Source of the DNA: a virus
Length of the DNA stretch: 64,000 nt
IMG/VR virus record: IMGVR_UViG_3300005673_000094
Span: 1 to 64,000 of that record
Reading direction: 5' to 3' (one strand)
The notes under the pieces are model-generated. The model saw only the letters and a program-made list of their open reading frames with translations. It was not told the DNA's origin and did no database searches. Position numbers and translations under genes: made by a program. Below are positions 34,016 to 49,794 of the stretch, in pieces (position 1 is the first letter of the stretch; each line of letters opens with the position of its first letter).

Positions 34016-36196
34016 TTAAGCAGCGATCGCTTGCAGTTCTGCGTCGGTGAAGTCGCGCGTGAACCATGCCACACGTCTGATGATGCCAGTGAATAGGGAC
34101 GCTGCGTCTGCACGCCGACCGATGTATAGATGAGTGGCTGTCGGAATAGTCGCTACGTTATCCACGGCGACTGTGCTTCCGTCGCGACTTCCTGCGATGT
34201 CATTTGTGGCAAACGACACCGCTGCCTTAAATGTCTGGCCCACAGACATTGCGGCGCCCATCGAAGCGAATGCCTGCGCGACACCATCATCGAGTACGGA
34301 ATACGCGGGTTGATTGCCGCTCGTGAACAAAATAGAGCATCTATCGGCATTTGTACCGTTGTTGAACTCCACAACAACCTGCTCAAATCCAGTAGCGTTC
34401 AGCGTAGTAATGCGTGCTTCCACGAACAGCGTGCCCCGCACTGACGGGTCGCCCGGCAGCGCACTCGTGAGGATCGAGATCGCATCCGCATTCCGAGTTG
34501 CGGTTGTGCCGGCAGTGGGGATGTAAGAGGTCGGCTGCGATCCAAGTTCGAACTGACCACATCCGATGTGAATGCCCGATGTGCCATCACCCGTGAACGA
34601 GGTCGACGTGCCGTTATCGAGCGCGATCCGTAGATTGATATTGGTGTCCGTGCCGCCGAGCGTGACCGCAACCCAGCATCGATAGAGCCCGCCACCCCAA
34701 TCTTCGATGCCGGAGCCCGCAACAACAGCGTCGGCGCCTGATGTCGCTCCAACAACAGTCCCGGTGGACGCGTTGAAAGTGCATCCGCCATACCGTGCTA
34801 GCGTCGTGCCCTCGTAGATGGCGAGATGCACGCGCGAGAACTCGGCTTGGCGAACGAAGTGCGAGAACACATAGGTGCTGGTGTTGGTCGTGCCTGAAAT
34901 TGTCTGCGTTCGCGTGTGCGAGTTGGGCAGCGCGGTAGCGACGATCTTCTCAAGCGTCAAAGCGCCTGTTGGCCCGGCAGCAGAGTTTGCAGCAACCGTC
35001 GTCTGAAAGCTCGACCACGGCGACACGTCAAGTTCCTCAGACCTAAGTAGCAGGTTCGTCGCCGCCGGCTCGACCAAGATCCCCAGCAGCACGCCCGTCA
35101 CGGGGTCGTGCTGGTACCGCAGCGTATTGGCCGCGGCGTACTTGTAGACCCGATCTCTGTCGACGTAGCCGGCATTGGTTCCAGAGCGGGTGACGGTGAG
35201 CAGATCCTCAGGTTTGCCCGCGTTGGACTTCGCACCAGAGTAGTCGGCGATCAGGGCCGACCGCGACGGTGCGTCGATCGCAAACCCCTCCTCGCCGGCC
35301 AGAATGTCCTCGGCGCACAGGATGGTGTCTCGCGTCTCGGTCAGCGCTCTGCCGCTCGCACGCCCGAACCACAGGCACCGCCACTGACCTGAGCCGTTGG
35401 AGGCGAAGATCGCCATGTCTCCGGCAGCCGTGGTGATGTTCGCGCCCGTCGGCAGGATGAGCGTCGTGGCGTTGTGTGTGAGCGTCAGCGCGCCAGAGAA
35501 GCGGACGAACCGGAACCGGTTGGCGACAGACCCCAGCGAGGTGATCGTCGTTGTGCCTGTGATCTCCACGCGTACCGACGTGGTGGCTCCGATGTCGGTC
35601 GTCGAGGCAGACGCCACCACCGCCTCGGCGACATTCAGGTATGCCTGCGCGAATGCCGTGGTGGCGATCTGTGTCGTGCTCGTTCCGCCCGCCGCAGTCG
35701 GTGCGGTCGGCGTCCCGGTCAGCGCTGGAGACGCAAGCGGCGCCTTGAGCGCCAGGGCTGCAGTCAGCGTGGCCACGTAGTTCGGATCGTCGCCGAGCGC
35801 CGCAGCGAGTTCGTCGAGCGTATTGAGCGCGCCCGGCGCTGCAGCGATCAAAGCATTGATCGCTGCCTGCACAAACGCGGTTGTCGAGAGTTGGGTCGTG
35901 TTGGTGCCCAGGCTCGCAGTCGGGGCGGTCGGTGTGCCGGTGAACGGGACGCTGTTCAGGTCCATCAGATTGAACGGCAGCTTGCCGCCTGCCCCGAGCA
36001 GAGGGATTGTCCCCTCAGAGGTGCCGACCGCGTAGCCGAACGAATCGCCCGCCTTGGACAGGATGTAGGCCCACAGGGCGCGCCACTTGTACGGGGTCGG
36101 CCGAACTGCGGCGACCGACTCTGCCCCGAGCAGAATCGCGTCATCCCCAGGGCTGGAGTCCACCAGTACGTTCGGGTCTCCGAGGTTGAAGGTCAT
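34016..36196 (-). CDS. Fibre/spike protein with C-terminal LamG-like carbohydrate-binding domains (paralog 1)
   Basis: TGTPTAPT..ATTAFV; APGALNTLDELAAALGDD; GILVEPAATNLL; TSYIPT..TRNAD. Confidence 0.8.
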   Translation of the reverse strand: MTFNLGDPNVLVDSSPGDDAILLGAESVAAVRPTPYKWRALWAYILSKAGDSFGYAVGTSEGTIPLLGAGGKLPFNLMDLNSVPFTGTPTAPTASLGTNTTQLSTTAFVQAAINALIAAAPGALNTLDELAAALGDDPNYVATLTAALALKAPLASPALTGTPTAPTAAGGTSTTQIATTAFAQAYLNVAEAVVASASTTDIGATTSVRVEITGTTTITSLGSVANRFRFVRFSGALTLTHNATTLILPTGANITTAAGDMAIFASNGSGQWRCLWFGRASGRALTETRDTILCAEDILAGEEGFAIDAPSRSALIADYSGAKSNAGKPEDLLTVTRSGTNAGYVDRDRVYKYAAANTLRYQHDPVTGVLLGILVEPAATNLLLRSEELDVSPWSSFQTTVAANSAAGPTGALTLEKIVATALPNSHTRTQTISGTTNTSTYVFSHFVRQAEFSRVHLAIYEGTTLARYGGCTFNASTGTVVGATSGADAVVAGSGIEDWGGGLYRCWVAVTLGGTDTNINLRIALDNGTSTSFTGDGTSGIHIGCGQFELGSQPTSYIPTAGTTATRNADAISILTSALPGDPSVRGTLFVEARITTLNATGFEQVVVEFNNGTNADRCSILFTSGNQPAYSVLDDGVAQAFASMGAAMSVGQTFKAAVSFATNDIAGSRDGSTVAVDNVATIPTATHLYIGRRADAASLFTGIIRRVAWFTRDFTDAELQAIAA

Positions 36197-36203
36197 GGCT
36201 CCA

Positions 36204-38381
36204 TCACCCCGTCAGAGCCACGAGTTCAGAGTCTGCCAGATCGCGCGAGAACCACGCCACGCGACGGATGATGCCATTCACTGCCCCGCCAGATGCGCTG
36301 GCCCCCAATTGAAGCCGAGTGACTGTGGGCATCGTCGCCGAGGTGTCAGTACCAACAGCGCCACCATCGCGACTCCAGGCGACATCGTTGACGCGATACG
36401 ACATCGCCATCCGAACAACCTGACCAACGGCAACCGCAGAGCCAACCGCTGCAGATGCCTGGGCCACGCCCCCATCTGGCAGGAAGATTGCGGGAATCAG
36501 CGTCGATCCGATATTGATATTCACGCGCTCATTGTTGGTAGCGTCGTTGAGTTCCGCCAACGATTGCGTCGCGCCGGTTGTTCCTAAGGTCAGCGCATCG
36601 ACGAACAGCGTTCCCATCACCGACGCATCCCCAGGAAGTAGGCTCGTGGCAATCGTGATCGCATCCGCGTTTCTTGTTGCCGCAGCAGATGTCGTCGGGA
36701 TGTAAGAGGTCGCAGCGGAGCCCGCCTCAAGCTGAGCGCCCCAGACGTAGACGCCGGACACTCCGTCGCCGGTGTAGCCGGCTGCCGAGTTCGACACGTT
36801 TTGCAGGATGATCTGAGCGGCGACCGTGGTGCCACTCGGCCCGCAAACGCCGGTCAATTCGATCCGATAGACGCCATTGGGATATGGGACCACGCGGGCG
36901 CTGGCCCCGGAGCCAGTGCCCAGGTTCACTGCCGCAACCGTTATCTGGCCGTTTGAAGGATCGACATGAACACGAACGCCGTCCGAGCCCGACACCATCT
37001 GCGCGCGGACGAAGCGACCTCCGGAAGCCGGCTTGACAAAGAAGGATAAGGTGTTGGTGGAGCCGGCAACAACCGTAATGTTCTGATAGATGTAGTGGGA
37101 CCCGTTCGCCGTATCCTCGACGATCATGTCCATGGTGTTGGTGCCGTTGGGCGCGATGGCTGCGTCAGCTACCGAGCCCGAGCCGAACGCAAGGATGCCG
37201 GAGCGCAACCATGATGTCTGGAATTCCTGCGAGCGCAGCAGCAGGTTCGTCGCCGCTGGCTCGACCAGCAGCCCGAGCGGAACGCCCGTCAGCGGATCGT
37301 GCTGGTAGCGCAGGACGTTTACGCCTGCGGTCTTCAGAATCCGATCGCGATCGACGTAGGTGGCCGTCGTCGCTCGGACCTCCGTCAGCAGATCCTCAGG
37401 CTTACCGGCGTTCGACTTCGCGCCCGTCAGGTCATTGATCAGCGCCGAGCGCGACAGGAACTCCGCCGCAAACCCCTCGTCGCCGCGCAGAATGTCTTTC
37501 GCAGTGCGGATCACGTAGGGCGCCGCAATCGCCTTGCCTGAGGCCCGGAGGTAGGACACGACCCGCCAGTTGCCAGACCCATCAGATGCCACCAGCGCGA
37601 CGTCGCCGACGGCCGTCCTGATGTCGGCGGCGCCGGGAAGGATCAGCGACGTGACGTTGTAGGTCAGCAGCACCTCGCCGGAGAACCGAAGCACGCGGAA
37701 CCGGTTCGTGCCCGACCCGAACGACGTGATCGTGGTCGAGCCCGTGATCTCGATCCGGGTGGTGGTGATCGATGCCAGGTCGCAGGTCGCCGCTGACGCA
37801 AGCGTGGTCTCGGCGACGTTGAGCAGGGACTGCACGAAGGCCGTCGTCGCGATCTGCGTGGTGTTCGTGCCCGCCGTCGCGGTCGGCGACGTCGGCGTGC
37901 CCGTGAGCGGGGGCGAGGCCAGAGGCGCCTTGAGAGCCAGCGCCGACGTGATCGTGGCGGCGAAGTTCGCATCGTCACCCAGCGCCGCGGCAAGCTCGTC
38001 GAGTGTGTCGAGCACACCGGGAGCCGAGGCGATCAAGGCGGCGACGGCAGCCTGAACGAAGGCGGTCGTGGCAAGTTGAGTGGTGTTCGTTCCGAGGGTA
38101 GCTGTCGGGGCAGTCGGGATGCCGGTCAGCGGAACGCTGGCCAAGTTCATCTGCGCGTGGGGGAGTTTCCCGCCCGGCCCGAGCAGCGGAATATCGCCTT
38201 CCGCCGTGCCGACGTCGTATCCGAGCGTGGTCCCGGCCTTCGATTGGATGTAGGCCCACAGCGCCGACCACTTGTAGGGCGCCGGACGAGGCGAGTTGAT
38301 CGACGGCGCGGCCATGACGATGCCGTCGTCGCCCGCGCTGGTGTCGACGACCGCGCCGCCGTCCTTGAAGTCGAATGCCAT
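36204..38381 (-). CDS. Fibre/spike protein (paralog 2)
   Basis: Same architecture as 34016-36196. Confidence 0.8.
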   Translation of the reverse strand: MAFDFKDGGAVVDTSAGDDGIVMAAPSINSPRPAPYKWSALWAYIQSKAGTTLGYDVGTAEGDIPLLGPGGKLPHAQMNLASVPLTGIPTAPTATLGTNTTQLATTAFVQAAVAALIASAPGVLDTLDELAAALGDDANFAATITSALALKAPLASPPLTGTPTSPTATAGTNTTQIATTAFVQSLLNVAETTLASAATCDLASITTTRIEITGSTTITSFGSGTNRFRVLRFSGEVLLTYNVTSLILPGAADIRTAVGDVALVASDGSGNWRVVSYLRASGKAIAAPYVIRTAKDILRGDEGFAAEFLSRSALINDLTGAKSNAGKPEDLLTEVRATTATYVDRDRILKTAGVNVLRYQHDPLTGVPLGLLVEPAATNLLLRSQEFQTSWLRSGILAFGSGSVADAAIAPNGTNTMDMIVEDTANGSHYIYQNITVVAGSTNTLSFFVKPASGGRFVRAQMVSGSDGVRVHVDPSNGQITVAAVNLGTGSGASARVVPYPNGVYRIELTGVCGPSGTTVAAQIILQNVSNSAAGYTGDGVSGVYVWGAQLEAGSAATSYIPTTSAAATRNADAITIATSLLPGDASVMGTLFVDALTLGTTGATQSLAELNDATNNERVNINIGSTLIPAIFLPDGGVAQASAAVGSAVAVGQVVRMAMSYRVNDVAWSRDGGAVGTDTSATMPTVTRLQLGASASGGAVNGIIRRVAWFSRDLADSELVALTG

Positions 38382-38384
38382 GGC

Positions 38385-38978
38385 CTAGTCCCACTCGACG
38401 GGCACGCCGCCCCAGTTGATCCGTTCGCCACCCCACTCCAACGCATCCTCACGGGCATCACCGACCGTCGTCGACACCGCCGTCGTCGTTGCAAACGTGC
38501 GGGCGATCGTGCGGTCGGCCAGCAGGTAGGCCCTGGTCGTCTCGCCGCCGTCCGGCTCGGTCACCGACACCACGAACTGAGCTCGCCGGTGCGCCGGCTC
38601 CATCAGCACGGCACAGTCGGAGTTTTGAATGAGTCCCGCCTCGATCATCCACTCGACCGCGGCGTTGCCCTCGATCCGAAGCCCGATGGCCACCTCGCGC
38701 GTCAGCCGGCGTTGCTCGTAGAGCCACAGGCCCGAGCCGTGCAGGTCGCCCGGCACCTCGGACACGAGGTCGCCGATCCAGCCGCGGCGCTTGAGCGGAT
38801 CCGCCACTTCGTCCGGGCGGGCGCGGCGATCTGAGAAGAAGGATACGAACAGCGCCGACTCCAGCCCGTCGGTGGTCGCGAAGTCACGGCTCGTCGCGTC
38901 GATGACGAGGTCGTAGTAGCCGTGCGGCGTGCGCTCGTAGGAGAGATCGGTGTAGGTGACTGCTCCCGCAGAAATCAT
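38385..38978 (-). CDS. Baseplate protein, Mu gp46-like; N-terminus supplied by the TnpB element
   Basis: GLESALFVSFFSDRRA..RGWIGD..GSGLWL..R. Confidence 0.88.
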   Translation of the reverse strand: MISAGAVTYTDLSYERTPHGYYDLVIDATSRDFATTDGLESALFVSFFSDRRARPDEVADPLKRRGWIGDLVSEVPGDLHGSGLWLYEQRRLTREVAIGLRIEGNAAVEWMIEAGLIQNSDCAVLMEPAHRRAQFVVSVTEPDGGETTRAYLLADRTIARTFATTTAVSTTVGDAREDALEWGGERINWGGVPVEWD

Positions 38979-40070
38979 AGCGAGGCTCCTTCTACAAGCG
39001 TGTCCAGCCCGACACGGACGATGTTGAGTGCGGCGTTAACGTCGCGATCGTGGCTCTCGCCACAGACCTCGCACTCCCATCGTCTTATTCCGATCTCTGC
39101 GATACCTTTGGGGCCGCTGTCTGCACCGCAGACAGAACAGGATCGGGAGGTGTTTCGCTCATCCACCTCGATCATCTTCCCGCCATGCCTAAGGGCCTTG
39201 TACGAGAGTTGAGTGCGAAGCGTGGACCAGCCGGCGTCGAGCACACTCTTAGCCATGCGGGTCCGAGCAAGTCTCTCGCTCGATACGTTGCCCACGAAGA
39301 TCGTCCCGTGAGCCAAGGCGATCCGAGCGCTCGCCTTGTGGAGGTAGTCCTTGCGGCAGTTCGCGACCTTCGCCGCGATGCTGCGCGCGAGCTTCGTCTT
39401 GCCGGCACGCTGCGCTTTCGCGTGACGCTCGGCGTGCTTGGCGAGGTGTCGCGGGTTCTCGATCTTCTCGCCAGTCGATAGCGTCGCGAGGTCTTTCAAG
39501 CCGAGATCGATGCCGACGATGCTGCCGCCGGACTTGGCGAACGCCTCAGCCGGCATCTCGATCGGCAGGTTGATGTACCAGCGCCCGCGGGAGTCCTGAT
39601 TGAAAGACCCGGCGCGGATCACGGCGCCATCGGGCAGATCGCGCCAGTGCATCGTCTCGTAGATGACGCCGCGGAACTTAAGTTTTCCCGGCGCCACGAC
39701 GGTGACGTGGCCCTGGTTGAAGGGGACCCACCCGAGCGACTTGCGTCCACGGAATCGGAGCCAGGGCTTGCGATGCTGTTTACGTGAGCGGTCGTACTGC
39801 TGGCAGACCTTCTGGATCGTGTGCGCGTGCAGGTCGAGGTCTTTCGACGCGCCAGCAGTGAGGCGCTGGAGGTCGACGGCTGTGAGCCACTTGCGCCCAG
39901 CGCGGGCGGTCTTCTGTTGGGTCTCGTTGCAGTAGTTCCACACGAAGTTGACGGCGCGTCCCTGACTGCTCAACTCACGCGCATGTTTGTCGCGCAGCCG
40001 AAAGCGCATCACCGTCAGTGCGCTACGAGCCCCGCACTGGCGGACACCGCTTTCACCTTCTTGATCTACG
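38956..40070 (-). mobile_element. Transposase-less IS200/IS605-type TnpB element inserted at the start of gp46
   Basis: Left hairpin CAGTGCG/CGCACTG (40016-40039); right end ..GAGCAGTCAC; removal restores ATG ACA GAA GAC ATC TAC ACC GAT (MTEDIYTD). Confidence 0.65.
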
Positions 40071-40084
40071 ATGTCTTCTGTCAT
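38975..40084 (-). CDS. tnpB: TnpB RNA-guided endonuclease
   Basis: VNFVWNYC; GIDLGLK; IFVGNVS (RuvC-II E replaced by G); VDERNTSRSCSVC..CEVC; DRDVNAALN. Confidence 0.95.
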   Translation of the reverse strand: MTEDIVDQEGESGVRQCGARSALTVMRFRLRDKHARELSSQGRAVNFVWNYCNETQQKTARAGRKWLTAVDLQRLTAGASKDLDLHAHTIQKVCQQYDRSRKQHRKPWLRFRGRKSLGWVPFNQGHVTVVAPGKLKFRGVIYETMHWRDLPDGAVIRAGSFNQDSRGRWYINLPIEMPAEAFAKSGGSIVGIDLGLKDLATLSTGEKIENPRHLAKHAERHAKAQRAGKTKLARSIAAKVANCRKDYLHKASARIALAHGTIFVGNVSSERLARTRMAKSVLDAGWSTLRTQLSYKALRHGGKMIEVDERNTSRSCSVCGADSGPKGIAEIGIRRWECEVCGESHDRDVNAALNIVRVGLDTLVEGASL

Positions 40085-40485
40085 GACGGGCCCGCCGCGA
40101 GTGAGGCTGCCACCGCCGTGCCGACCGCGGTCGCCTCGGCATCGGCCAGGGCGAGTACCGCAGTCACCAGCGATGACGAGGTGGTCGAATACTGGAGCCC
40201 CTCGATCGTCAGCACGGCGTTCTTGAAGGTGCCGGCATCGTCGTAGCGGGCCTGCAGAACGAGCCCGAGCGGGGCGCGGCCGCCAACTGTCTGCTTGATC
40301 TTGGTCGAAACCAGCGCCACGGTGACGTCCACCGCGTAGGGATCGATCCCCCAGTTGTTGTCGGCGCCGGGGGGTGGGTTGATCACGCGCGCGGAAACGG
40401 TCCAGCCGTGAGTCGCATTCCCGAGGGAGGCGATCAGGTTGGTGATGAGCGTGTTCGACGCGGCCGGAAGGGTCGGGGCGGGCAT
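40081..40485 (-). CDS. Hypothetical protein
   Basis: Between PAAR and gp46. Confidence 0.55.
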   Translation of the reverse strand: MPAPTLPAASNTLITNLIASLGNATHGWTVSARVINPPPGADNNWGIDPYAVDVTVALVSTKIKQTVGGRAPLGLVLQARYDDAGTFKNAVLTIEGLQYSTTSSSLVTAVLALADAEATAVGTAVAASLAAGPS

Positions 40486-40492
40486 AATCGCT

Positions 40493-40750
40493 CTAGTCTG
40501 TGATGCACTTGGCGGCACCCGAGACGATGATCGCTCCGCAGGAGCACACTGACGTGATTCGGCAGTTCCGCCTATTGTTCACGATGGTCTTCGGAGACCC
40601 TGAAACCACCACCTGCGGCCCGTGGATGGCGCACAGGTAGATGTCCATGACCCGAGACGAGCGGCGGTTCTCATCGATGGTGTCCGGGGAGCCGGTCACC
40701 AGCACGCCGCCGTGGCTGCCCTTGTCGCCGATGCGCGCGTCCCTGGGCAT
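40493..40750 (-). CDS. PAAR-like spike tip protein
   Basis: ARIGD..SHGG..C.IHG..CSCGA. Confidence 0.85.
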   Translation of the reverse strand: MPRDARIGDKGSHGGVLVTGSPDTIDENRRSSRVMDIYLCAIHGPQVVVSGSPKTIVNNRRNCRITSVCSCGAIIVSGAAKCITD

Positions 40751-41145
40751 CAGGCGTCGCAGTTGATGAAGTAGATGCCCTCGGTATTGGTGCGCTTGTC
40801 GGCGCCGACCTTTTCTTTGAGTTCCGCCGTGGTGACGACCTTCGTGTTGCCGTCCGCGTCGTGCTTCACGTAGTTGGCGGTGTGCGGGCTGGCGAAGCTC
40901 GTCTCGCCCGCCTTCTGCTTGTCCATGCGCCGGGCCGGCGGCGCCATCACGATGCCGACCAGCTTGCCCTCGTCGCCGTCGAGTTGCATCACCAGCACCT
41001 TGGAGCCCTTGATCGGGTTCGACTGCACCCCGAACGGCTCGATGATCTCGATGGTCGCCTCGTGGCCGTCGGACTTCACCCGCACCAGCTTGTGCGGGCC
41101 CTTGTCGTTCGACGGGCCGACAACCGTTCCCCAGCGATTGACCAT
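40750..41145 (-). CDS. Baseplate spike, Mu gp45-like
   Basis: EPFGVQSNP..GS; position. Confidence 0.75.
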   Translation of the reverse strand: MVNRWGTVVGPSNDKGPHKLVRVKSDGHEATIEIIEPFGVQSNPIKGSKVLVMQLDGDEGKLVGIVMAPPARRMDKQKAGETSFASPHTANYVKHDADGNTKVVTTAELKEKVGADKRTNTEGIYFINCDA

Positions 41146-41148
41146 GCC

Positions 41149-42351
41149 TCAGTCCCCCTCGTCGTAGTCGAGCCGGTCGGGCCCCTCATCCTCAGGCTGG
41201 TCGAGTCCCTCCTCCTGCGCGGCGCGGTGCGAGCCTGCGGCCGCCGAGCCGATCCCGCCGGACGACCCACGCCCACCGCCCCCACCGCCGCCTTCGGAGA
41301 ACCCGTCCTTGTAGGTGCACACCACCTCGGTGGTCGCGCCGCCTTTGAAGTCGAGGTGCCACTGCACCTTCACGATCAGAAGCTCGTCGTTGATCTCGAA
41401 GTGATCGTCGCGAACCGGGATCACGAAGCCCGGCCACCACAGTTCGCCCGGTGCCGCCTCGAAGCCCTGCACGGTCGCGGTGTACTGAAACCCGCGCGCC
41501 TTGGCGACGTTCGAGCGCCACTTCGCAGCCTTCTTCGGCGTGCCGCCTTCCAGGCCCCGCTCGGACCGGTAGTGCCGGCGGCGCTGCGGCCTGATCTCGT
41601 CGTCGAGATGCACGCCCCACTGCTTCGACATCGGTCCAGCCTGACCTGGCTTGAAGTCTTTCTCCTGACCTTCCCAGTAATCGAGGTCGTTCTGAGACTT
41701 CTGACCAGCAACGGCGGTCTGGTTGTGCCGGTCTTTATCGGACTGCTTGTACTTTGCCTTGAGGACGTTGTTGCGTGGATTGTCCTCAAATGACTTGAAC
41801 AACATGCCTGGACCGCGCCGTTTCTGGTTGCGGTCGATGACGATATTGCCCTCGCCGTCCGTGGTGAGGACGCACTCGCGATTGCGGGCCCAGCGGTCGC
41901 AGAAGTTGAAGCCGAACTCCTGAATGCCGGCGACCGGCACCTCGGCGGAGCCGAACGGCGGCGGCGAGACCTTGTCGATGACCTTGAGGTCGAGCCCCAT
42001 CTTCTTGGTCGTGCGCTCGATCACCTGCTTCAAGGTGACGGGCGGCTTCAACTCGACACCGGGGCCAACGGTCGAGTCGATGAAGTCCTGCGTCTTGTCC
42101 CGGAAGGAGAAGTTGATCGCGTGGTCCTTCCAACCGTGGCTCGCGTCGACCTCGTTGATGAACCCGGTGACCACCGGCCGCCCCATCAGGATCAACTGCG
42201 CGGGCATGCCGAGCTTGGCCGGGAACACCTGCCCTGGAAGCTCGGAGATCGTGATCCTGGCCGACCCCTCGACCTTGTCGAAGGACTGCTCGGCCTTGAT
42301 GTCGAGCGTGCCGGCGTAGGCCTGGCCGTCGAGCATGACGATGGCGCGCAT
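41149..42351 (-). CDS. Baseplate hub, Mu gp44 (gpP)-like
   Basis: RDKTQDFIDS; LTTDGEGNIV; LWWPG..V.D. Confidence 0.85.
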   Translation of the reverse strand: MRAIVMLDGQAYAGTLDIKAEQSFDKVEGSARITISELPGQVFPAKLGMPAQLILMGRPVVTGFINEVDASHGWKDHAINFSFRDKTQDFIDSTVGPGVELKPPVTLKQVIERTTKKMGLDLKVIDKVSPPPFGSAEVPVAGIQEFGFNFCDRWARNRECVLTTDGEGNIVIDRNQKRRGPGMLFKSFEDNPRNNVLKAKYKQSDKDRHNQTAVAGQKSQNDLDYWEGQEKDFKPGQAGPMSKQWGVHLDDEIRPQRRRHYRSERGLEGGTPKKAAKWRSNVAKARGFQYTATVQGFEAAPGELWWPGFVIPVRDDHFEINDELLIVKVQWHLDFKGGATTEVVCTYKDGFSEGGGGGGGRGSSGGIGSAAAGSHRAAQEEGLDQPEDEGPDRLDYDEGD

Positions 42352-48601: not shown

Positions 48602-49794
48602 GGAATCTCAAAGCTGGCGGTGAGCGGGGACGGGTGACCCTTGTGGAGTATCCCGGTGAAGTCCAAGCCGTCGATGACGGGGGCGCCGGTCGGCGGGATC
48701 GTCGTCGGCACCGTGCCGTTTGCCAGCGCGGCGTCGTTGAGGCTCGGCCAGTCGAACGGTGCAATCGCGTCGGCTTGGGTCAACTCGATGGTGGACTGGA
48801 AGCGGTACGCGTGGACGTAGATTGCCCGATTCGCCACCAGAATGGGCTCGTGCTGATCGAGCAGCGCGACATACGCCGACTCGCCGCACGCCAACTCGCT
48901 CGTCGGCAGTTTGAGTCCGCGGTAGGTGCGCAGGATGGCGCGGAAGATCTCGCCCACCGCCAAGTCGTAGCAGGCGACGTGCGCGGCGGTCGTCTTGCCG
49001 GGCAGGAACGCCAGCGCCACGAATCCATCCATCAGAAGTTGGCGGTAGTCTGACCCGACACCGATCTCGCCCAGAGCATCCGAGTTGGCGAAGTTGGAGC
49101 GCGACGCGCGCGCGCCGGAGGGCTGCGGCGTGATGAACAGATGCGCCTTGGTCAGGCTCGCGTCGTCCCGTGTGAACTGCGACAGGGACGCGTCGAGATC
49201 GACCGCGCCGAAGATGCGGATGTTGCGGACCACCACCGGGTTGGTGACGGCGTAGGAGCGCTCGACCGTTGACGGCGTCGGGAACGTGAGCGTGGTCGAG
49301 GATGCCGCAGTGACGGCGTGCCACCCGATGATGGCGTCCTCCATCCGCTCCAGCAGCTTCTCGTTGCCGGTGAGCACGATGGGCCCGACCACGGCCGCGC
49401 CGGGCGTGAAGCGGACCTTGGTCGGCGACGGCGTCGACACGATCTGGCGCACGCCGTTGAGGTGCGCGTTGGTGAACCCGGTCAGCTTGACCGTCGGGTA
49501 GAGCGGCGTCGACCAGTCCGGTCCGACAAGCTGGTTGTGCGGGTACTGAGTCGTGATCTCGATCGTCTGCGAGTCGATGACGGTGGCCGCAGTGATCGGG
49601 TTCGGCGCCTCGGCGTCGGTGATCGAGATGGCGATCTGCTGCCCGACCGGGACACCGTGCGCGGCCGAGGTGGTGATGGTCACCAGACCGCCCGCCGTGA
49701 CGACGATCAAAGACACCGCGAACGGGTCGGAGAAGCGCGAGGTGTATCGCGGCAGGATGACGCCGCCGGCCAGGACCAGAGGTGTGAGTTTCAT
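48598..49794 (-). CDS. Tail terminator/neck protein with FCCH-like beta inserts
   Basis: TITT..AHG..G..I repeats; YVHAYRFQ; position. Confidence 0.6.
   Translation of the reverse strand: MKLTPLVLAGGVILPRYTSRFSDPFAVSLIVVTAGGLVTITTSAAHGVPVGQQIAISITDAEAPNPITAATVIDSQTIEITTQYPHNQLVGPDWSTPLYPTVKLTGFTNAHLNGVRQIVSTPSPTKVRFTPGAAVVGPIVLTGNEKLLERMEDAIIGWHAVTAASSTTLTFPTPSTVERSYAVTNPVVVRNIRIFGAVDLDASLSQFTRDDASLTKAHLFITPQPSGARASRSNFANSDALGEIGVGSDYRQLLMDGFVALAFLPGKTTAAHVACYDLAVGEIFRAILRTYRGLKLPTSELACGESAYVALLDQHEPILVANRAIYVHAYRFQSTIELTQADAIAPFDWPSLNDAALANGTVPTTIPPTGAPVIDGLDFTGILHKGHPSPLTASFEIP

Follow-up and report, generated by a model that had tools for sequence, protein, structure and literature searches.

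The virus gene gp46 has very probably been entered at its start codon by a tnpB-only derivative of the IS200/IS605 family, one that targets ATGAY, carries at its own right end a start signal that would rescue the gene, and is predicted to follow the guide logic of RNA-guided TnpB systems. The element lies in the window, the whole 64,000-nucleotide stretch of DNA that we analysed, which comprises bases 1-64000 of the 97,657-bp IMG/VR virus record IMGVR_UViG_3300005673_000094; the record has 65% G+C and is rated 100% complete by CheckV. Element and gene follow a Mu-type baseplate block on the minus strand, laid out in the coding direction as follows:

41149-42351, minus strand: GpP-like gene, Mu-type baseplate block, read first in the coding direction
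40750-41145, minus strand: Gp45, Mu-type baseplate block
40493-40750, minus strand: PAAR, Mu-type baseplate block
40081..40518, minus strand: 145-aa late-operon ORF upstream of tnpB, no Pfam match
38975..40084, minus strand: extended tnpB ORF, 369 codons, Pfam OrfB_IS605 and Cas12f1-like_TNB
38385..38978, minus strand: gp46 as now encoded, 197 aa, PF07409 (phage GP46 baseplate family)

The boundaries of the element emerge from comparison with element-free alleles in the 90% cluster of the window's gp46. These begin M-T-Y-T-D-L (P0244, 190 aa, 95% identical to the window's gp46) or M-T-Q-Y-T-D-L (P0242 and P0243, both 191 aa), whereas in the window's protein a leader precedes T-Y-T-D-L in place of the bare M; a further protein, P0241 (197 aa), has the window's leader followed by T-Q-Y-T-D-L. 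Occupied gp46, at 197 aa, is the native form of 190-191 aa with six extra N-terminal residues. We also collected TnpB relatives from viral, metagenome and genome contigs, and in the closest clade the otherwise unconserved left flank ends in ATGAC, sometimes ATGAT, in nearly all members examined. Because native gp46 starts M-T followed by the flank seen in the empty alleles, the element spans 38956-40079 and its TAM would be ATGAC; the insertion point falls between base 5 and base 6 of gp46, leaving ATGAC at 40084-40080 as the sole gp46 DNA to the left of the element. Degenerate DNA patterns of the empty site had no match in viral or metagenome contigs.

38956..40079, minus strand: TnpB element, 1,124 bp, IS200/IS605 family, tnpB only, no target duplication
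40080..40084, minus strand: ATGAC, the native gp46 start codon plus 2 nt; insertion target, from empty alleles and left flanks, and presumed TAM

An earlier sequence-only reading had placed the element at 38956-40070, with a native gp46 start of MTEDIYTDL (a predicted 194 aa) and a TAM of about GACAT. Its central claim, that the element interrupts the first codons of gp46, is borne out by P0244, P0242 and P0243, and no tnpB-less relative begins with the leader MISAGAVT, so the claim survives that check as well. Deleting 38956-40070 does restore an open frame, and starts in the family consist of M, one to five residues and then Y/F-T-D-L, much as MTEDIYTDL would require; but this is not the real empty site, as the same three alleles are of 190-191 aa and the 194-aa form is absent from the cluster. 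The junction falls after ATGAY in all six verified empty sites, not at GACAT, and the nine bases at issue, which can be aligned with L170's left end, are the start of the left end here. We give this placement next to no chance. The distance from target to left-end hairpin, being spread over 14-37 nt among relatives, is unable to separate the two boundary models. The earlier observation is partly confirmed, the element being real and its left boundary misplaced, and the interpretation is partly supported, right in its logic and wrong in left boundary, native N-terminus and TAM.

At its right end the element carries a ribosome-binding site and a start codon. The earlier claim of AAGGAG, seven nucleotides and an ATG over the tnpB stop, in frame with gp46, holds on the minus strand:

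38986..38991, minus strand: AAGGAG, Shine-Dalgarno-like box, 7 nt ahead of the replacement ATG
38956..38978, minus strand: right-end leader of ATG, six codons and then AC, which completes ACC (Thr)

The replacement ATG (38978-38976) overlaps the tnpB TGA and shares the frame of the gp46 ORF 38385..38978. Position 38956 is the last base of the right terminus, GGAGCAGTCAC, which relatives always share, in this form or as a close variant; the last bases of the element are ..GTC AC, and codon 2 is rebuilt in frame. Between the junction and the conserved or invariant GP46 residues there is no alternative in-frame start codon. We propose that the AAGGAG box, its 7-nt spacer and the ATG would start a seven-codon leader, that the next host base would complete Thr, and that gp46 would gain six residues. 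What had been called translational re-initiation is better described as initiation at the right-end Shine-Dalgarno sequence together with an ATGA-coupled start.

Could gp46 instead be broken in this record, a defective prophage in which nothing is rescued? The record is a metagenomic contig, and no direct support for this account was found. Against it, the full-length GP46 ORF is intact (PF07409 at 2e-16) and retains all family-invariant residues, in 35 columns; the identical leader-bearing protein is found on five contigs; the layout recurs in many phages and genes; and CheckV's completeness estimate leaves the record whole. A broken gene is therefore very improbable.

The same layout recurs within the genome and across the clade. 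A second copy, outside the window (G000:C1:91008-92194; L002:1449-2635, minus strand), is 67% identical in DNA, encodes a 349-aa TnpB, lies after ATGAT and retains the canonical right-end hairpin. An ATG lies over its tnpB stop, 7 nt past an AAAGGAG; the copy ends in ..GTCAC, and its leader runs into a 181-aa ORF whose nearest homologue, P0248 (163 aa, 83% identity), starts M-I-I-S-N-R, the predicted empty site. For four other loci (L010, the GcrA homologue L011, L015 and L084) empty alleles came from exact look-ups of the leader-fused proteins: cluster mates start M-T or M-I and continue with the exact post-junction residues. All six insertions for which an empty allele is known follow the fifth base of the ORF, after ATGAY and without duplication; of the genome's 320 ATGAY sites, a rough tally finds no more than 39 that look like gene starts. 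In practice, genes whose products begin Met-Thr or Met-Ile would supply the clade's target, as their start codon and the two bases after it. What was first seen at one locus is a design shared across the clade. An internal CTGAC that we had considered as the target at L011 was rejected, since the empty alleles show ATGAC at the start.

Reading phase is held across this variation. Outward-reading, stop-free ATGs are present in 22 of 23 aligned right ends, with a spacer of 6-7 nt between AGGAG and ATG, and in 20 of those 22 the terminal AC forms the first two bases of a codon completed by the next base; leaders in this phase measure 23, 47, 50, 53, 56 or 59 nt, all 2 mod 3. Of 25 independent elements, 17 have a leader that enters an ORF of at least 60 codons or reaches the edge of the contig, whereas the other two frames do so in one and four cases among the first 15. 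Because these 25 are related to one another, the frame statistics are not fully independent. Pfam assigns the frames downstream of leaders to GP46, GcrA, N6_N4_Mtase and HTH_3. At L116 the right end is ..GTCAA and the element is located after ATGAA; right ends in ..CAC or ..CAA thus mirror targets in ..GAC or ..GAA, which keeps codon 2 in frame. A scan with the right-end DNA pattern returned mostly unrelated coding matches, and only L079, L082 and L084 were new elements. L084 (8241-8560, minus strand) is a tnpB-less mini-element in which the left-end hairpin is joined directly to a right end with Shine-Dalgarno sequence, ATG and leader; its fusion partner is an 83-aa ORF, whose empty alleles, of 68 aa, were seen on more than 18 contigs.

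Such a distribution might also arise by peel-and-paste transposition, with a host or helper TnpA acting in trans, insertion at start codons reflecting survivorship only and the right-end ATG being incidental. Most relatives do have canonical hairpins at both left and right ends, a tnpB-less mini-element exists, and survivorship must contribute in gene-dense phages. However, phase, Shine-Dalgarno spacing and 2-mod-3 leaders are conserved across indels, which is unexpected for an untranslated end; the right end mirrors its target; and the gp46 element is without the hairpins that TnpA would need. We consider transposition in trans with an incidental ATG improbable. No Y1 (HUH) TnpA (PF01797) was matched anywhere in the 97.6-kb record, with positive controls, and the absence of tnpA first noted near gp46 is borne out across the whole record.

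On the left side, the captured gp46 ATG (40084-40082) overlaps the TGA (40083-40081) of the 145-aa ORF as ATGA, confirming a reported overlap of the tnpB start with the upstream late-operon gene. The 85-aa PAAR-motif ORF in turn shares 26 nt with the 145-aa ORF (window 40493-40518, minus strand). The sequence supports the further claim that the tnpB ORF opens, in frame, from the captured start: coupled by ATGA to the upstream baseplate-operon gene, the captured codon would open a frame through the 70-nt left end into tnpB.

40010..40079, minus strand: left end, 70 nt, coding for residues 3-25 of the 369-aa TnpB; a degenerate version of the canonical left end

Many TnpB homologues in our protein collection have a left-end-coded N-terminal extension of 22-28 residues and are without the canonical internal Met, which argues that TnpB is translated from the captured start in those elements. 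For the gp46 element, TnpB could alternatively start at the internal ATG at 40009, giving a core of 344 aa. That core is 95.6% identical to that of P0121, the nearest TnpB relative; the 25 codons of the left end have the same length as in P0121 and retain an open frame, and 5 of 25 residues match (20%). The canonical left end of relatives usually has an 8-bp hairpin after ATGAC or ATGAT. A left hairpin had been described at 40016-40039, and one of 7 bp is present there, energetically ordinary (z = -1.2), but it is not the family's canonical left-end hairpin. The left end of the gp46 element has let its hairpin decay and kept its frame.

The protein is a recognizable TnpB. Its 369-codon ORF, which is intact, matches PF01385 at 8e-15 and PF07282 at 4e-23 (OrfB_IS605 RuvC and TNB zinc finger) and the ISDra2 TnpB structure chains 8bf8, 8exa and 8h1j at E = 1e-22, and it retains GIDLG, HDRDVNAA, two CxxC motifs and the RuvC-I and RuvC-III aspartates. 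At the canonical RuvC-II glutamate column it has Val; this column is non-acidic throughout the clade, the adjacent column holds Asn or Asp, and an invariant clade Glu lies about 40 residues downstream of the canonical position. Relocated RuvC glutamates are known in several TnpB clades, some of them virus-specific (PMC10691335), and by this analogy nuclease activity of the protein would depend on the relocated Glu. We considered GNVS in place of GDVS as a private inactivating change and rejected it, as both forms are common in the clade. The TnpB relatives in GenBank phages were all of 45% identity or lower.

The last ~130 nt, made up of the end of tnpB and the right end, have a conserved fold with covarying stems. 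In the alignment of 23 right ends a 6-bp hairpin at 38999-39016 shows compensatory changes at 6/6 pairs and none broken; a long-range stem in the same region also covaries, and both stems lie inside coding sequence.

38956..39085, minus strand: omegaRNA-scaffold-like region over the tnpB 3' end, with covarying stems
38940..38955, minus strand: predicted guide template, the first 16 nt of gp46 past the junction, by analogy with ISDra2-type TnpB

By that analogy the tnpB 3' end and right end would encode an omegaRNA scaffold, with the first ~16 nt of gp46 as the guide. The sequence-only reading had proposed 38955-38940 as guide template, and these 16 nt do adjoin the conserved right end and have a single exact copy in the genome. 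The guide would match element-free alleles, with ATGAC ahead, and not the occupied allele; there GTCAC precedes the flank in place of ATGAC, which should spare that allele. Empty alleles are known as proteins, and identity of guide and target is therefore established at the protein level only. An Rfam scan of 38000-41000 gave no family at E <= 1 except a chance snoRNA match. On the plus strand (window 49050-49071) a 14/16 match to the guide, at 49056-49071, comes after a CTGAC but is displaced from it by one base; this is probably chance, because a control pattern gave as many matches.

Both canonical end hairpins are lost from the gp46 element: the left one is degenerate, and the terminal right-end hairpin, 8 bp in most relatives, is deleted, as a result of which the omegaRNA may be impaired. 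The element might then be an inert relic, a fixed fossil whose TnpB and RNA are inactive and which owes its persistence only to a right-end start that renders it harmless; the missing hairpins, the missing tnpA and a left-end peptide diverged to 5/25 identities all suit this account. Yet tnpB is intact, and its copies in two phage lineages are 97.6% identical where the gp46 genes beside them differ by 5.8%; its core is 95.6% identical to that of P0121, the scaffold stems are intact, and the left end, strongly diverged as it is, still spans 25 codons in an open frame. Nor does the history of the alleles look like that of a fossil: each gp46 allele that bears the element has its closest match in one that lacks it (95.2% and 96.3%, versus 94.2% between the bearers), and element and neighbouring Gln codon occur in every combination. 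We judge an inert relic unlikely, if worth taking seriously.

The last of these points concerns the presence or absence of the element and of the Gln codon next to the junction, for which all four combinations exist (38940-38978; P0001, P0241-P0244). Sites 1-3 nt apart are inseparable by recombination, so either the element was gained or lost repeatedly or the indel recurred. Such population data agree with a recent gain or loss at the exact site, or with strong constraint on tnpB. Homing of the gp46 element is predicted, and these data stop short of proving it. Since both canonical end hairpins are lost, the element, if it still spreads, would do so without a transposase. L012 and L013, like the gp46 element, are without the terminal right-end hairpin and the canonical left-end hairpin, and all three look like elements that have lost the substrates of a transposase and retained nuclease and RNA. 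Tentatively, and at less than even confidence, we extend this to a general scheme: a clade with an ATGAY TAM, mostly from phage contigs here, whose right end serves as both scaffold and start, which can thereby colonise essential genes, whose hairpin-less copies are non-transposing homing (gene-drive) cassettes that persist and pass between co-infecting phages by this route only, and in which binding of TnpB to the scaffold competes with translation of the rescued gene.

IS200/IS605 elements make no target duplications. At L012 (2400-3560) and L013 (2340-3570) we nevertheless observed a direct repeat of 10-11 nt, in which the bases after the target, or after ..GAC, are the bases that follow the right end. 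These repeats might be the scar of imprecise, break-induced copying.

With elements of the ISDra2/IS608 type, which have TnpB and omega(re)RNA (8bf8, 8exa, 8h1j; PMC13565253), the gp46 element shares a TnpB with RuvC and zinc finger, a structured RNA over the tnpB 3' end that ends at the right end, and insertion 3' of a fixed pentanucleotide, the TAM, with no duplication and with a right-flank guide, TAM and guide being predicted here. The targets differ, TTGAT or TTAC in those elements and ATGAY in the clade of the gp46 element. Unlike them, the gp46 element has a right end with Shine-Dalgarno sequence, ATG and fixed-phase leader and a left end that is an open frame continuous with tnpB, has neither tnpA nor either canonical end hairpin, and has its RuvC-II Glu apparently relocated. 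By protein, RNA and target behaviour it is a member of the IS200/IS605 family; in tnpA and end hairpins it departs from it.

The nearest functional parallel is the IStron. CdISt1 and its relatives (PMC4227781, PMC10690162) are likewise IS200/IS605 or IS607 TnpB elements that offset their cost inside a coding gene, and in them too one 3' junction serves both host gene and guide RNA. IStrons rescue the host gene by group I intron splicing (PMC4227781, PMC10690162), whereas the gp46 element would do so at translation, through a replacement start. We found no group I intron in the gp46 element by Rfam scan of 38000-41000, and its left end is only 70 nt. A replacement start could rescue a gene only from an insertion at its very 5' end. 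Features shared with TnpB-only (IS1341-type) elements and palindrome-associated mini-elements are tnpB without tnpA and short non-autonomous derivatives with both ends, as at L084; for these we found no literature account of an outward start codon built into the element, nor of targeting to start codons. Full-text literature searches likewise gave no description of the replacement-start TnpB layout, and the terms 'start codon' and 'translation' are absent from a 2026 OMEGA review (PMC13565253). The predicted behaviour, cutting of the element-free allele in a co-resident genome and copying in by repair, is that of free-standing and intron-borne phage homing endonucleases; as far as it is described in PMC13565253, a TnpA-independent IS605 plasmid gene drive (Mears et al. 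2025, cited there) behaves in the same way. The gp46 element differs in being, by prediction, RNA-guided and TAM-dependent, and in lying inside an ORF without intron or intein.

The TnpB proteins of IS200/IS605 elements are the ancestors of Cas12 and are in development as compact genome editors. To our knowledge, avoidance of harm to a gene-dense host by a TnpB element was known only for IStrons, which splice out. Here we suggest that the cost is removed at translation: the start codon is targeted, and the last bases of the element restore Shine-Dalgarno sequence, ATG and reading phase. This would explain how TnpB elements come to lie inside essential late phage genes without splicing. It predicts that the natural TAM is ATGAY and that there is a trade-off between formation of the guide RNA and translation of the host gene, and, with homing as predicted, it would offer a natural case of RNA-guided gene drive among viruses that is simple and open to testing. 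For annotation it carries a warning, as N-terminal leaders ending in ..GAVT are element-derived.

One observation concerns the genes beyond gp46. Directly after it, in window 34016-38381 (minus strand), lie two tandem paralogues of ~725 aa each, with similar N-termini and a Laminin_G_3-like C-terminus in both. This is the slot at which gp47 and gp48 are expected in a Mu-type phage.
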